Assembly (NCBI GenBank): GCA_963846745.1
Contig: CAWJXE010000007.1
Coordinates: 1,108-65,107 of the forward strand
Length of the DNA: 64,000 nucleotides
From: an uncultured Bacteroidota bacterium
GTDB taxonomy: Bacteria; Bacteroidota; Bacteroidia; Cytophagales; Cyclobacteriaceae
Reading direction: 5' to 3'
In this document: piece by piece, positions 12,043 through 59,824 of the stretch
Numbering within the stretch: the stretch's first letter is position 1
Layout of the letters: every line of letters begins with the position of its first letter
The notes under the pieces: generated by a model
Told to the model about the DNA's origin: nothing
The model's database searches: none
Seen by the model: the letters and a program-made list of their open reading frames with translations, nothing else
Program-made: the position numbers and the translations under genes

Positions 12043-12073
12043 AGCTGAAAGCTTACAGCGTACAGCTTACAGC
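12043..12073. repeat. Heptamer tandem array (AGCTTAC family)
   Basis: AGCTGAA AGCTTAC AGCGTAC AGCTTAC AGC. Confidence 0.85.
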
Positions 12074-12170
12074 CTTTTTCAGCCTTATTACTGCGTAAAA
12101 TCACTGCAAAAATTCGCTTTTTGAGGGTTTTTCCCATGAAACTGTGCGCGGGACACTTATTGCTGACAGC

Positions 12171-12464
12171 TTATAACTCAATAAACTTTTCCAAAGAAAA
12201 CGCCTGCGCATGGGTTGTAAACAAAGGCTTCACCTTTCCCCAAACTTCCTTAAAAAGCTCAGAATTCCGGTAGGCTTCCAGATCACTAGCCTTTTTCCAA
12301 TGACTTAGCGTAGTATAAACATTCGGATGGTTGACATCTTTCAACAACTCCAAATGCGTGCATCCTTTCACCTTCCGGATGGCGTTCTTATGTTTCTGAA
12401 AGATTTCCAAAAACGTTTCAACGCTTTCGTCTTTAAAATGCATTCTGACAATCCGGATGATCAT
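12171..12464 (-). CDS. Antibiotic biosynthesis monooxygenase (ABM) family protein
   Basis: 97 aa; GCTHLELLKD...YTTLSHW...LEAYRNSELF pattern. Confidence 0.9.
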   Translation of the reverse strand: MIIRIVRMHFKDESVETFLEIFQKHKNAIRKVKGCTHLELLKDVNHPNVYTTLSHWKKASDLEAYRNSELFKEVWGKVKPLFTTHAQAFSLEKFIEL

Positions 12465-12470
12465 AGAGCA

Positions 12471-12604
12471 GTCAGCTTACAGCTTACAGCTTGCACTCGA
12501 AGCTGTAAACTAGTGCTGAGGTAATTTTATGGTGGAGCTGTCAGCCCACAGCTGTCAGCTTTTACAGTGTAAGAGCTGTAAGCTGTGAGCTGATGCTGTC
12601 AGCT
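12471..12604. repeat. Inverted heptamer array (AGCTTAC / AGCTGTA arms)
   Basis: AGCTTAC units on the left and reverse-complement-phase AGCTGTA/AGCTGTG/AGCTGTC units on the right, filling the intergenic gap. Confidence 0.85.
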
Positions 12605-13374
12605 TAATCAAAAATTATATTCACGACGCCGTCATAGCCCAGCCCTAACAATTCCGCCGCGTTGCCTTTGTAAATACCGATTTCGAGGAGTCCAAGGCTG
12701 TTAAAAACAATGAAGCACTCACCTTGCTCTGCCTGGCTGTACTGGGTGTGAATCTTCCTAAATTTCTCGCCACCAAATGTGACGGTAAAGGTTTTTCCCG
12801 GACTCAGAATATCGAAAACCCGCTTGGAAATGTTTGTTATCAGGTTCCCCACAGCATCTACTCTAATGATACTTCCGGTAATTTGTTTTTTTGTTGCTTT
12901 GATCTGACGGTCGATCATTTTTTTAAACATCGTCATGGGTTTCCCTAAATTGGTTATGGGCATCCCACTTGCGAGTTTGACAGCGGCAGAGGCAAAAATA
13001 TCACGCTCAGGAAATGTGGTCGTAATTGGATTTAGTGAATTTAATTCGATCACTTGTTGATGCGATTGCTCGCTGAGCAGTCCAAATAATCCGTTATCAC
13101 ATCCCACGAAAAAATGATCCTCTAGCTGCAGTGCAATGAAGGAATCATTTTTATTTCCTGTGGCATCAACGCCGACCAGGTGAACTGTTTGCATTGGAAA
13201 ATCACGGAAGACAGATCGTAAAACAAATGCGGCGTGTCCGATATCACCCGGTTTGATATCGTGTGTGATATCTTCAATGCGAATGGCCTGGTTGATACTG
13301 ATTATTCGTGCCTTAATTGCCGCCACATAATGATCACTCGTGCCTGAGTCAGTAAGTAAGGTTACGATCGCCAT
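12604..13374 (-). CDS. SAM hydroxide adenosyltransferase / chlorinase-fluorinase family (DUF62)
   Basis: IVTLLTDSG..D.YVAAIK, DITHDI, DNGL, TFPERDIF, D..GNLITN; usual synteny with ABM and phoH. Confidence 0.92.
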   Translation of the reverse strand: MAIVTLLTDSGTSDHYVAAIKARIISINQAIRIEDITHDIKPGDIGHAAFVLRSVFRDFPMQTVHLVGVDATGNKNDSFIALQLEDHFFVGCDNGLFGLLSEQSHQQVIELNSLNPITTTFPERDIFASAAVKLASGMPITNLGKPMTMFKKMIDRQIKATKKQITGSIIRVDAVGNLITNISKRVFDILSPGKTFTVTFGGEKFRKIHTQYSQAEQGECFIVFNSLGLLEIGIYKGNAAELLGLGYDGVVNIIFD

Positions 13375-13584
13375 GGTTGTTTTCTGGGGATAGCTTTATT
13401 TTGTTTTGTTACGTTCGGTTTTGAAGCCTTTTCTCCTTGGAAATTAATATTTTTGATTTGCAAAATAGTCATTTTTAGCAGCGAGATGAGATGGACAGTG
13501 AACTTTGTTTAAATCAATGCGTTAAGAATATTTCACACCTTTCTCCTCACACCATAAGTTTAACATAACATTTTAATTCAGGTT

Positions 13585-56864: not shown

Positions 56865-58090
56865 TTGAACCTTTCGTATTTCATATCCAAAAGAATCAGT
56901 CGTGATCAAAAGAAGGGATTTGCTTCGTCCATTCACAACATCGCGATCGTGATCGTTGGGATAGGATTGGCCGCTGTAATAATTTCTTTTTTGATCATGC
57001 GCGGTTTCCAGGAAACAGTGAAGAATAAAATTTACAGTTTCAATGGCCATTTGCTGGTTACGAAGTACACGATGAATTATTCGCCCGAAGAGCAGCCCAT
57101 AAATTACTACATCGATCTCTATAAAAATCCACAACAATTCCCAGAGATCAGGCACATTCAGGAATATGCTCATAAGGCGGGTTTGATAAAAACCGACAGC
57201 GGTGAAGTACTGGGAATTCTTGTCAAAGGCGTGGGCAGGAGCTATGATGTAAAGGCTTTTCAGGAAAACATTGTCGAGGGTAAATTCATCGATTTCCCCG
57301 ATTCCGGGTATTCGAACCAGGTGGTAATTAGCAGAATAATTTCTGATAAATTACAGGCAAAGATTGGCGATGATATTATCCTTCATTTTATTCAAAATCC
57401 ACCACGGCAAAGAAAGCTTTCAATTGTCGGGAATTTATGAAACCAATCTTTCCGAATACTTTGACAGCAATGTTATTCTGGCTGACTTGCGAATGATCCA
57501 GCGTTTGAATGACTGGTCAGATAGTATTGCGGGAGGGCTTGAGGTTTACATCAAAAATGCATCAAATATTGATGACGTTGGATATGCAATTGGTGAAAAA
57601 ATGGATTTTGACCTCAGTATTGAGAGTGCAAATGATAAATACATTCAAGTATTTGAATGGCTCAATTTACTCAGCAGGCAAGTCAATATTTTGTTAGGTG
57701 TTATACTCGTTGTCGTTTCTGTGAATATTATTTCAATCATTTTGATCCTGGTGATGGAACGAACGCAGATGATCGGGATGTTAAAAGCCCTGGGAGGTGG
57801 CAATAAATTTATCCGATCAATTTTTATTTACAACGGCGATGAGCCTAATTGCAAAAGGCCTGTTGCTGGGAAATTTGATTGGCTTGGGGTTGTGCTACAT
57901 TCAATATCAATTCAAAATTGTGAAACTGAATCCTCATGACTACTACATGAGCTTTGTTCCCATTAGCTGGGAATGGGGAATTGTTGGGGTGTTAAACATT
58001 TTTACATTCCTCGTCGTTTCACTCGTGTTATTATTACCAACGATGATAATTTCGCGAATAAATCCGATCAAGGCAATTCGTTTTGATTGA
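56865..58090 (+). CDS. LolC/E-like lipoprotein-releasing ABC permease (2 frameshifts)
   Basis: MNLSYFISKRI, GIYET, MERTQMIGMLKALG, YYMSFVP, INPIKAIRFD. Confidence 0.9.
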
Positions 58091-58172
58091 TGGTAATATT
58101 CAGTTAATACTTCAAATAATTTTATATTTTTGTTCTATAAGGAGCCCACCTTATTCGAAATGTTACAATGTT

Positions 58173-58730
58173 ATGCAGTTAAAATTTAAAAATCCGGTTA
58201 GGCCAGATCTAACCAACACAATTCAGAAGCGAAACAGAAGACTTCAAGCGTTCTTTAGTGCTAAAAATCTGGACGTAAGATTGCACGGTGATGCCCAGAA
58301 TCCACTCATGGTGTTGTGTGGATGTGTGGGTCTGTCGGCTTATGTTCACAACTTTGATCTTCGGTTGTTGGATAAACCCAACCAAGGAGAGGTTATGAAG
58401 ATTTATAAGCTCACAGAAATCATTCAGGGAACGCGTGAGGAAGTTGTTGATTGGATACAACAATATCCTCAAATGCCGCTGTTCCGTATTCAACACAGTT
58501 CAAGCAAGTTGTTTTTGTGTGGTTTCAATTTTGTCGATCGTGAACAGAAATTGGGAAGATATCCCGTTTTTGCACGAGAAGATTATCACATCTACAAACA
58601 ACGTGAAGCTGCGGAAGACATCCTGAACATGTTAAAAGAGGATGGATACGATGCTGAAATAACTGAGCCCGATCTGGAATTGGTTAAGTCGCACGTAGGT
58701 CCCGTAACTTTTATTGGATTTCAAGAGTAA
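58173..58730 (+). CDS. Conserved hypothetical protein
   Basis: Clean 185-aa ORF; NPVRP, YVHNFDL, GFNF, YPVF. Confidence 0.75.
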   Translation: MQLKFKNPVRPDLTNTIQKRNRRLQAFFSAKNLDVRLHGDAQNPLMVLCGCVGLSAYVHNFDLRLLDKPNQGEVMKIYKLTEIIQGTREEVVDWIQQYPQMPLFRIQHSSSKLFLCGFNFVDREQKLGRYPVFAREDYHIYKQREAAEDILNMLKEDGYDAEITEPDLELVKSHVGPVTFIGFQE

Positions 58731-58747
58731 GCAATTCTAAGATTGGT

Positions 58748-59503
58748 TTAAGAAGATTGTCCCAACGGGATATACTTCTTAAACCAGCTTTGAATGGTCA
58801 TTTGAAGAACACCAAAGAAAGCCTCCTTAAAGATTCCTGCGGACATCTTTGATTCACCTAGCGTGCGATCTGTAAAAATGATCGGCACCTCTTTTAAAAT
58901 AAAGCCAAATTTCCAGGCTAAAAATTTCATTTCGATCTGAAAGGCATAGCCGACAAATTTTATATTGTCAAGCGGAATGGATTCTAATACTTTCCGGCGA
59001 TAACATACAAATCCTGCTGTCGTGTCGCGAATCGGCATGCTGGTAATCAAGCGAACATAACTACTGGCGAAATAGGAGAGCAGTACACGCCCAATGGGCC
59101 AGTTCACGACATTAACACCCGTCGCATAACGCGAGCCGATGGCAACATCGCTTCCGCGTTCTGAGCACGCTAAATATAAATTGACAAGATCTTTGGGATC
59201 ATGTGAGAAATCAGCGTCCATCTCCAGCACAAAATCATATCCCTTTTCCATCGCATATTTGAAACCCGTGATGTAAGCCGTTCCTAGTCCAAGTTTACCA
59301 GGCCTTTTTACCAAATGGAGTTTTACTTCCGTGTGATTATATTCTTCCTGCATTTTTTCGACGATCTCCGGAGTACCATCAGGTGAACTGTCATCGACGA
59401 TAAGAATGTGAAAATCTTTCGCCAATCCAAAGACAGTGTCGATAATAGCACGAATGTTTTCGCGCTCCTTGTAAGTCGGAATAATGACGATCGCGTTGCT
59501 CAA
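58748..59503 (-). CDS. Polyprenol monophosphomannose synthase (GT2)
   Basis: IIPTYKE, VDDSSPDGT, GLGTAY, EMDADFSH, GSRY, GYAFQIE. Confidence 0.94.
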   Translation of the reverse strand: MSNAIVIIPTYKERENIRAIIDTVFGLAKDFHILIVDDSSPDGTPEIVEKMQEEYNHTEVKLHLVKRPGKLGLGTAYITGFKYAMEKGYDFVLEMDADFSHDPKDLVNLYLACSERGSDVAIGSRYATGVNVVNWPIGRVLLSYFASSYVRLITSMPIRDTTAGFVCYRRKVLESIPLDNIKFVGYAFQIEMKFLAWKFGFILKEVPIIFTDRTLGESKMSAGIFKEAFFGVLQMTIQSWFKKYIPLGQSS

Positions 59504-59785
59504 AGAAAATGCAGTGGTTGCAACAAATCTATAAAAACTCACATTCTAAACAATCGATTTCTGGGATTTGAATATTTGAATTTTTGCCAATCTCTTTTTT
59601 AGGCGGTCAAGTCGTTTCTTAAAAATAAAGCACACACGCACACCTTCTTAAATTCTGAATGCTACTTCTTTTATGCAGGAATAATGCACTTCAGAGCCCA
59701 AAAATACATCGGAAACAACCTTCCACGCAAACTTTCAGCGATAAAAAAGTTCAGCTAGGACGGATAGCTTAACTTCGCAGCCTCA

Positions 59786-59824
59786 GAACCTCGAACTTCA
59801 AACCTCGAACTTCGAACTTGAACT
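59786..59824. repeat. Heptamer tandem array (CTCGAAC/TTCAAAC/TTCGAAC) at the EF-G2 stop
   Basis: Same family as 56405-56489. Confidence 0.88.

Follow-up and report, generated by a model that had tools for sequence, protein, structure and literature searches.

Introduction

Tandem repeats with a unit of seven nucleotides have been noted in bacteria for decades, without an accepted origin or function. The arrays studied here lie in a stretch of 64,000 nucleotides (the window) from an uncultured bacterium of the Cyclobacteriaceae (Bacteroidota; GenBank assembly GCA_963846745.1, contig CAWJXE010000007.1, positions 1108–65107). We consider it rather likely that they belong, as members without a gene, to a family of hairpin-forming repeats resembling the intervening sequences (IVSs) of 23S rRNA, with arms built of heptamers and present as paired arms, single arms and one composite. 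In the full form of the family the same arms enclose a small gene of the TIGR02436 / 23S_rRNA_IVP family (S23p, Avd-like). The genome is a compact case of such repeats: the units share a core, hairpins stand at gene ends, the sites are empty, differently filled or resized in relatives, and arms surround a gene family otherwise described only from rRNA IVSs. If the link between arrays and gene is causal, the role of S23p and the preference for period 7 would merge into one testable element. In practice, such arrays break assemblies, shift stop codons (here that of a gene resembling elongation factor G, EF-G) and mimic regulatory repeats.

Intergenic direct repeats of the unit TAACTGA were described from marine Beggiatoaceae, Cyanobacteria and five Bacteroidetes by MacGregor (2015; PMC4679880). 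According to the available parts of that paper, they resemble the present arrays in their 7-nt unit, their sets of 2–6 or more units and their intergenic position, and also in the presence of neighbouring heptamer families in the same spacers and of close relatives without repeats at the same sites. They stand in 'forward' orientation and end a few nucleotides from start codons, comparable to the sense bias of the motif AAnC(T/G) at starts found here, and one array of the window, at 14610, has TAACTGA itself as its unit. The same parts of the paper describe, however, one dominant heptamer and nearly always direct repeats (one indirect), whereas many unit families coexist in the present genome and 148 of its 365 arrays have an inverted partner. 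They make no mention of inverted-array hairpins or of a four-helix-bundle gene ('intervening', 'four helix' and 'S23' having 0 occurrences).

The heptamers GGGAATC and GGGGA(C/T)T of Xanthomonas and Nostoc were read as formers of G-quadruplexes by Rehm et al. (2015; PMC4692102), who also cite heptanucleotides of Calothrix and a survey from 2007. As far as the accessible text of that paper goes, these heptamers are over-represented in intergenic DNA within 50 bp of the ends of open reading frames (ORFs), and arrays crowd at gene ends also in the present genome. They are under-represented between divergent ORFs, show a preference for about four units and form 70–75 convergent inverted pairs per Xanthomonas genome, the type being kept and the length varying between species; 'S23' and 'intervening' have 0 occurrences in that text. 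Unlike these G-rich units, the families found here (AATCGGT, AACGGAT, AAAATCT, AACCTCG, AAAGCTT and others) have no G-tracts, and the four-unit preference and the pairing in this genome are therefore not explicable by quadruplexes.

The 23S IVS of Coxiella burnetii contains an S23p ORF and is regarded as selfish, the S23p-family gene often decaying, and tandem heptamers (GACAGAT, 2–4 copies, the number varying between strains) lie at its RNase III site, as stated in the available sections of Warrier et al. (2016; PMC4990558). The same sections place IVSs at helix 25 or 45 of the 23S rRNA, from which RNase III has been demonstrated to excise them. The plan of arm, gene and arm, with the terminal inverted repeats as a long stem, is shared by the Coxiella IVS and the gene-bearing cassettes of the present genome, in which five of the six genes are broken. 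The window elements, unlike IVSs, are placed between protein genes and enclose no gene, the processing of their stems being only predicted, and they are not IVSs in the strict sense. Genes of 23S_rRNA_IVP are also lodged within cas operons (PMC3936711, a cas gene catalogue, in a passage that leaves repeats unmentioned), and the relevant part of a preprint on the Candidate Phyla Radiation lists the domain among rRNA insertions. Searches of the openly accessible literature, supplements aside, yielded no account, other than the Coxiella IVS, of S23p/TIGR02436 genes with heptamer arrays at their flanks. The class of intergenic heptamer repeats is already known but unexplained; the interest of the present case lies in the shared core and in the unpublished link to cassettes of the IVS protein.

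Repetitive extragenic palindromic (REP) sequences and REPINs, with their RAYT genes, form a further comparable system: they are short intergenic repeats, often inverted hairpin pairs at gene 3′ ends, and the non-autonomous copies far outnumber the gene. The heptamer arms differ from the fixed palindrome of REP in being tandem arrays of variable unit number, and the TIGR02436 gene is without a known nuclease or transposase fold, in contrast to the Y1 transposase of RAYT.

Material and methods

The genome is a metagenome-assembled genome (MAG) of 2.10 Mb in 17 contigs, 58% complete, and the window corresponds to C7:1108–65107. Tandem repeats were called with Tandem Repeats Finder (TRF), in the window at a score of at least 30, and the rows of periods 7, 14 and 21 were merged into a genome-wide set of 365 arrays, 11.6 kb in total. 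A strict criterion (near-perfect arrays of at least three units) was applied in parallel, with two first-order Markov simulations of the genome as the null. Gene positions were taken from a rough custom dicodon caller, which called 79% of the genome coding and leaves start codons uncertain.

Ten array sites of the window were compared with four relatives (G009, G007, G044 and G013). For the density survey, 31–80 kb were sampled from each of 23 other genomes and combined with the whole-genome figure of the own genome (n = 24); ten of the samples were contigs known only through the presence of TIGR02436. Cassettes in relatives were recognised automatically by inverted flanks with a score of at least 28 and a period-7 self-match of at least 0.6, and this test was applied to the 20 best-scoring loci. 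Among public sequencing runs, 20 rows contained part of the stretch, the top share of sampled words being 0.24 and that of the single RNA run 0.08.

Excess of period 7 and the common core of the units

In the window TRF returned 51 rows, of which 18 had period 7 and two, seven and four had periods 6, 8 and 9, respectively. Genome-wide, 342 rows of period 7 were found against 43, 118 and 103 of periods 6, 8 and 9, together with 108 rows of period 14 and 18 of period 21. Under the strict criterion the genome contained 56 period-7 arrays, compared to 0–2 for each of the periods 5, 6 and 8–15, and the simulations gave none for period 7. The excess of period 7 is far beyond chance. An earlier reading of the window, made from its letters alone (the sequence-only reading), had described a family of period-7 arrays, and these proved to be part of a genome-wide system. 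The arrays comprise 2–10 units with a mode of four, a mode inflated by the TRF score threshold, which drops most imperfect arrays of two or three units. With tandem 7-nt units, over-representation of period 7 and a mostly non-coding position near ORF ends, they show the features of the heptamer repeat class.

Ten of the eleven array starts given in the sequence-only reading were recovered by TRF exactly or within a few bases, namely at 12050, 12473, 14541, 17174, 22609, 34126, 36671, 54629, 56405 and 59786; the eleventh, 37607, was not reported. The partner arms at 12574, 14610, 17216 and 56472 were likewise reported by TRF, and the unit sequences named in that reading agreed with the DNA itself and with the TRF output.

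When 333 seven-letter unit consensi were aligned over rotation and strand, they converged on the pattern n-R-A-A-n-C-K (A 76%, A 97%, C 87%, T/G 60/29%). The core nnAAnC(T/G) held 5.23 bits of information, compared to 3.87 ± 0.11 bits (maximum 4.03) in letter-shuffled units. About ten unit families account for most of the arrays, and families recur in congeners. Also the published units GGGAATC (rotated to GGAATCG) and TAACTGA match the core once rotated. The earlier claim that the sequence is not conserved among the arrays therefore fails in the face of this common core and of the few families that recur throughout the genome and the genus, and the idea of a system recognising periodic structure rather than sequence was too strong, since the units have the AAnC(T/G) core.

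Inverted layout and folding

An inverted partner within 1.5 kb (score at least 28) was present for 148 of the 365 arrays, and a direct partner for 55. The inverted pairs numbered 86, with loops from less than 10 nt to more than 1 kb, 49 of them under 150 nt and 37 of at least 150 nt. The polarity of the pairs was alike on both strands, the 5′ arm being GT-rich in 56, AC-rich in 19 and neutral in 11.

The four inverted arm pairs that had been pointed out in the window do fold, with z-scores from −3.5 to −7.9 on the plus strand and from −1.95 to −8.0 on the minus strand. The pair at 12465–12605 reached −66 kcal/mol (z −4.2 on the plus and −5.6 on the minus strand) and the pair at 56400–56492 −48.5 kcal/mol (z −7.9). 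The pair at 17160–17250 had z-scores of −5.8 (plus) and −8.0 (minus), and that at 14536–14645 a z-score of −3.5.

Transitions within the units had been said to retain G-U pairing. Among 50 arm pairs between co-directional genes, 38 differences gave G-U pairs in the sense RNA and 37 in the antisense only, beside 111 transversions; there is no strand-specific signal in these counts and no sign of selection on the RNA of one strand. The possibility that the stems act as RNA of one strand is thus unsupported. The quality of the stems is equal on both strands, and the upkeep of pairing therefore seems strand-neutral; whatever maintains the pairing of the arms may act on DNA.

Arrays around TIGR02436 genes

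The genome contained eight TIGR02436 matches at seven loci. None of these was on the contig of the window, where neither TIGR02436 nor PF05635 had a match, in agreement with the sequence-only reading, which had seen no such gene in the window. At six of the seven loci the match is framed, at a distance of 60–250 nt, by heptamer arrays in inverted orientation, with a unit peculiar to each locus. In-frame stops, frameshifts or truncation have disrupted five of these six armed genes, and only C5:15754–16122 is intact. The arm units of the cassettes include GGTAATC, TAGTTTC and AAGCTTC, and the same units also build gene-less arrays.

In relatives the family was found in 38 of the 41 genomes searched, with 1–15 matches each. 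Thirteen of the relatives' 20 best-scoring loci passed the automatic arm test; by eye, three more had heptamer arms, two had arrays of 9- or 10-nt units and two had none. The flanking of TIGR02436 genes by similar arrays, which the earlier reading had mentioned for Bacteroidota, was in this way confirmed both in the own genome and among the best loci of relatives. Across the 24 genomes surveyed, those with more TIGR02436 matches per Mb tended to have more period-7 rows per 100 kb (Spearman 0.60, nominal p 0.002); as the genomes are related, this p-value overstates the case.

The cassettes differ between relatives. At the site of the C9 cassette, G009 has the complete element with a full-length gene, G044 an empty spacer of 46 nt, G046 a gene-less hairpin of another unit, and G007 the gene in reversed orientation. 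The C5 cassette is absent in G007 and represented in G009 by the 3′ end of the gene and one arm, which is one clear deletion remnant of a cassette; G044 and G046 have copies of the C5 gene, 78–84% identical, elsewhere on other contigs. The own genome, G007 and G046 all carry the gene at the C11 site. The arm units there differ between genomes and both arms match within each genome, which shows that the arms of a cassette change in concert.

The seventh locus, C8:212309–212623, is an arm-less TIGR02436 paralogue in a tRNA gene cluster. The array-poor complete congeners G003 and G012 have one TIGR02436 match each. In G003 (L065:1188–1499) this sole copy is the orthologue of the C8 gene, with 90.7% protein identity over 107 residues, and it too is situated between tRNAs. 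The C8 locus looks like a vertically inherited paralogue, and its tRNA cluster like a home of the family in a stable-RNA operon other than that of rRNA.

Arrays of the window and their state in relatives

The closest relative, G009, is syntenic across the whole window at 86–92% identity, with a further 1.1-kb stretch at 97%. The synteny is broken at window positions 8223–11661 (about 3.4 kb with two genes), where the G009 counterpart has 0.4 kb, and at 40492–40599, where 107 nt correspond to about 4.9 kb in G009.

One site that is wholly different in G009 follows phoH (Pfam PhoH). In the window the 5′ arm, a GTTATCC array (14541–14571), begins 3 nt past the phoH stop codon, and the 3′ arm (14610–14641), upstream of a MacB-like gene, consists of three TAACTGA units and two of GATAAATC. 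G009 has at this site a TTGAATA hairpin and about 300 nt more, G007 a hairpin of TTGAAAA type and G044 nothing, and thus three different repeat families occupy one site in three genomes. The TTGAATA hairpin of G009 is 92% identical to a hairpin at another site of the window, the TTGARTR hairpin at 17160–17250 (arms 17167–17198 and 17216–17245), between convergent FtsX-like and GH3 genes. The latter is conserved in G009 at its own place and has four more matching places (82–97%) in two or three other regions of the own genome.

The composite hairpin block of AGCTKAC/AGCTGTM units at 12471–12604 (TRF 12473–12492 and 12574–12604) occupies the entire spacer from the stop of a SAM_HAT gene (12604) to the start of an ABM-domain gene (12464), both on the minus strand. 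The block is 61 nt shorter inside in G009, built of other units of the same family in G007 and replaced by no array in G044. Past the stop of that ABM-domain gene (12171–12464, minus strand), at a distance of about 100 nt, stands a single array of AGCTTAC type with about 3.4 units (12043–12073; TRF 12050–12073), which has an identical copy in G009.

At 22599–22830 a GATTTTA/GATTGAC array (22599–22632) precedes a non-coding module, conserved and about 190 nt long, the whole being one copy of a multi-copy composite repeat. The module recurs, enclosed by GATTTTA arms, at six or more further loci, which shows that the arms can enclose cargo other than a gene. G009 has a 526-nt version of this site, G007 one of 228 nt and G044 no array. 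The solo array of 4.4 AATCGTA units at 34126–34156, in the divergent spacer between an LptC-like gene and tilS (Pfam), has one unit altered in G009 and is absent in G044. In the orthologues of G007 and G013 this array is split by a GC-rich palindrome of about 21 nt that is present neither in the window nor in G009, one repeat type having landed in another.

The stop codon of mdh (Pfam Ldh) lies within the first unit of an AGCTAAC/AGTTTAC array (36669–36711). The family is degenerate at this site in G009, replaced by seven AAAGCTT/AAAGCAG units in G007, present as a weak degenerate array in G044 and not evident in G013. The array is followed at 36712–36760 by a separate GC hairpin and T-run with the shape of an intrinsic terminator. 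This structure is kept in all four relatives, and the mdh array itself is therefore not the terminator.

The array of 4.6 GGTAATC units at 54629–54660 overlaps the stop codon of the ORF 54149–54640, and its unit is also the arm unit of the truncated TIGR02436 cassette at C9:148545–149132. G009 has two or three units at the site and G013 none. A GTTCGAG/GTTTGAA hairpin with an inner GC stem (56405–56488, arms 56405–56435 and 56472–56488) stands just upstream of the start of an nth-like gene, and its GTTCGAG arm has 23 other matching places in the own genome. The same hairpin is found in G009, the left arm and a short right arm in G007, and none in G044.

The GAACTTC/GAACCTC array at 59786–59824 is situated at the 3′ end of the EF-G-like gene (Pfam EFG_IV/EFG_C). 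In the own genome the open frame passes through the array; G009 has more units and a stop codon abutting them, and G007, G013 and G044 are without the array. The EF-G-like gene itself (59755–61397, minus strand) consists of two overlapping open frames, 60441–61397 and 59755–60582, and a frameshifted gene or an assembly error is possible. The frame at its end differs from that of the relatives, so that the open frame enters the array for about 25 codons.

The weak alternation of AAGCTTA and CGGTTAA at 37607–37640 is probably not a member of the family: it is absent from the TRF output and nearly invariant in G009, G007, G044 and G013, and it was for these reasons not counted. With this site set aside, six of the seven comparable sites (those with both anchors found or read directly) are without an array in G044, an array-poor congener (1.9 period-7 rows per 100 kb), and in G013 the mdh, 54630 and EF-G sites are devoid of arrays. 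Compared with G009, the window arrays at 22599, 34126, 36671, 56405 and 59786 differ in unit substitutions or unit number, and more than their flanks do.

Contigs assembled from four of the public runs came from relatives 90–99% alike and showed insertions or deletions inside the arrays at 12492–12550, 12475–12563 and 14571–14610. A single public contig suggests a GTTATCC/TAACTGA hairpin at the 17167 site of another strain, although contigs of repeats can be chimeric.

Placement relative to genes

Of all arrays, 250 lay wholly outside called genes and 74 mostly inside. Among the 246 that were fully intergenic, 54 were at most 5 nt from a gene end, compared to 17.8 ± 3.8 under uniform placement in the same spacers, and the enrichment at gene ends proposed from the window is thus genome-wide. 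The statement that nearly all arrays of the window abut or overlap a start or stop codon was largely upheld, nine of the eleven lying within about 15 nt of one, with the exception of 12043 and 34126. Arrays occupied 42 of the 227 convergent spacers (18.5%), 120 of the 1363 co-directional spacers (8.8%) and 26 of the 247 divergent spacers (10.5%). Beside start codons the AAnC(T/G) strand was the sense strand in 36 of 48 arrays, and beside stop codons the GT strand was sense in 64 of 114.

The genes flanking the window arrays have unrelated functions (in Pfam terms ABM, SAM_HAT, PhoH, MacB/FtsX, GH3, ComEC, enoyl-CoA hydratase, DEAD helicase, LptC-like, TilS, Mdh, ECF sigma, HhH-GPD glycosylase and EF-G-like). 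None of these window arrays is in a 23S or 16S rRNA gene, protein-coding genes forming the flanks, and Rfam at gathering thresholds returned a single tRNA from the window. Closure of all three reading frames was considered as a selected property. It was found on some strand in 132 of the 365 arrays, in 41 random intergenic pieces and in 222 arrays of letter-shuffled units, and as the shuffled-unit arrays exceed the observed ones, it was rejected.

Origin and spread of the arrays

Between relatives, arrays gain and lose whole units, and they appear, vanish and are replaced at the same intergenic sites; a near-identical hairpin also stands at a second site (the 17167 hairpin and the phoH site of G009, 92%). 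Unit number would change by slipped-strand mispairing, and new copies could arise by copying between sites that share units, either by recombination or by template switching at hairpins. As no target duplication was seen, a cut-and-paste enzyme is the less probable agent. Purifying selection would spare only the insertions that do not break genes, those at gene ends, with an orientation filter acting at translation starts. In transcripts the long stems may be substrates of RNase III, by analogy with the intervening sequences of 23S rRNA. The dynamic, mobility-like system suggested by the sequence-only reading is in part supported, as sites are empty, refilled by another family or resized among relatives, but no TIGR02436-filled allele was found at the window sites. 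The interpretation of the arrays as empty sites or footprints of a gene cassette is accordingly not supported in the relatives examined.

Several further observations weigh against the arrays being gene-less members of an IVS-like family. In none of the four relatives compared is a TIGR02436 gene present at any of the ten window sites. For each cassette there are about 60 gene-less arrays (365 and 6), and when the own TIGR02436 translations were used as tblastn queries, 32 of the 37 pairs with loops of at least 150 nt gave no sign of the gene at E ≤ 1, so that most copies without the gene are not the recent remains of decayed cassettes. Where filled and empty sites were compared, whole spacers had been replaced, and no duplicated target or sharp boundary was readable. 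The correlation between arrays and gene is uncorrected for the relatedness of the genomes and falls to rho 0.49 (p 0.07, 14 genomes) without the ten gene-chosen samples. The genomes G034, G035 and G040 have 4–7 gene copies yet few arrays (1.2–2.5 per 100 kb in samples), and three genomes without the gene still have 1.2–4.5 period-7 rows per 100 kb, also in samples. To these are added the lack of a sign of selection on one-strand RNA, the crudeness of the gene calls, and the nature of the public-run material, which consists of assembled contigs without transcript ends.

As a separate point, gene-less long loops were considered as decayed remnants of the gene, and this was rejected: apart from one hit at E 0.87, the tblastn search pointed only to the five pairs in which the gene had been identified before (the arms of the sixth cassette being outside the pair set).

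The arrays may alternatively be ordinary heptamer microsatellites, prone to slippage, that originate by themselves at gene ends and are retained for a use at the RNA level, for instance in the context of translation starts, in the stability of mRNA 3′ ends or in punctuating operons. The four-helix-bundle gene would then be one cargo among others, landing in or captured by hairpins already present, with the arrays serving as its landing pads rather than deriving from it. We regard this as fairly unlikely. In its favour, arrays far outnumber cassettes, most long loops are without a trace of the gene, and other cargo exists in the non-coding module of the GATTTTA family. Convergent spacers are preferred, there are a few arrays even in genomes without the gene, and the sense bias of AAnC(T/G) in start-adjacent arrays (36 of 48) has the same 'forward' orientation as that reported for TAACTGA repeats in the available parts of PMC4679880. 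Slippage alone, however, cannot explain why inverted partners are so much more frequent than direct ones (148 and 55), and it leaves unexplained the concerted change of arms, the occurrence of an entire hairpin at another site with 92% identity and the core common to the families. Array density also tracks gene copy number, and a use in RNA finds no strand-specific G-U signal. A different explanation, that the arrays are multivalent sites for a trans-acting regulator, either post-transcriptional or a DNA-binding protein reading the AAnC(T/G) register, would make them a regulon and not a selfish repeat. The common core at a fixed phase, the position few nucleotides from starts and stops, the orientation bias at starts and the modal length of about four units (the mode being inflated by the TRF score threshold) all agree with it, and such a role was proposed for TAACTGA repeats, according to the accessible portion of PMC4679880. 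We nevertheless hold it to be improbable: the flanking genes are functionally unrelated, many arrays lie between convergent genes, the arrays evolve faster than their flanks, and the same sites are empty or carry other unit families in congeners, which is unexpected for conserved operators.

A chance pattern or an assembly artefact can hardly be believed, even if the genome is a 58%-complete MAG, repeats are prone to mis-assembly and one public contig joins array sites 2.6 kb apart: the strict criterion gave 56 period-7 arrays against none simulated, the same arrays are present at orthologous sites of independently assembled relatives, and period-7 rows occur at low density also in samples of single-contig genomes. 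Beyond the membership of the arrays in an IVS-like family, a more speculative proposal would unite them with the TIGR02436/S23p cassettes into one mobile system, in which a pentameric four-helix-bundle protein would read the AAnC(T/G) register and promote the copying or upkeep of armed hairpins. The cassette would then be the autonomous element, the 23S rRNA IVS a special case of it and the gene-less arrays its non-autonomous progeny. We put this forward tentatively, as a possibility with the odds against it; if true, it would account for the surplus of 7-nt repeats that has long been noted across many bacterial phyla.

Other features of the genome and the window

Three loci of the genome match Y1_Tnp (IS200/IS605 or RAYT-like): C8:5016–5360, C11:246645–246990 and C2:5310–5522; one of the three is frameshifted. 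Every locus has short GC-rich palindromes of its own on its flanks, and no heptamer array was found within 400 nt on either side of the three. They look like systems of REP/RAYT type, distinct from the heptamer arrays, and REP/RAYT as the driver of the arrays was rejected, as the Y1_Tnp genes have different flanking palindromes.

The MacB/FtsX-type permease gene at 14723–17012 consists of two overlapping frames (14723–15433 and 15318–17012), each with a MacB_PCD match, and is possibly frameshifted. Following the GGTAATC array, about 1.1 kb (54660–55760) are AT-rich, including a long A/purine tract (55419–55492), and the open frames there have no Pfam match; in the orthologous spacer G009 has 267 nt and G013 68 nt. 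Another type of repeat is present at 52105–52345, on both sides of a gene end, where imperfect palindromes of an 18-nt unit occur (TRF consensus AAGTCGTCAGACCACTAT). They are kept with small insertions or deletions in G009, and short matches to them were found elsewhere in G009 and G007.

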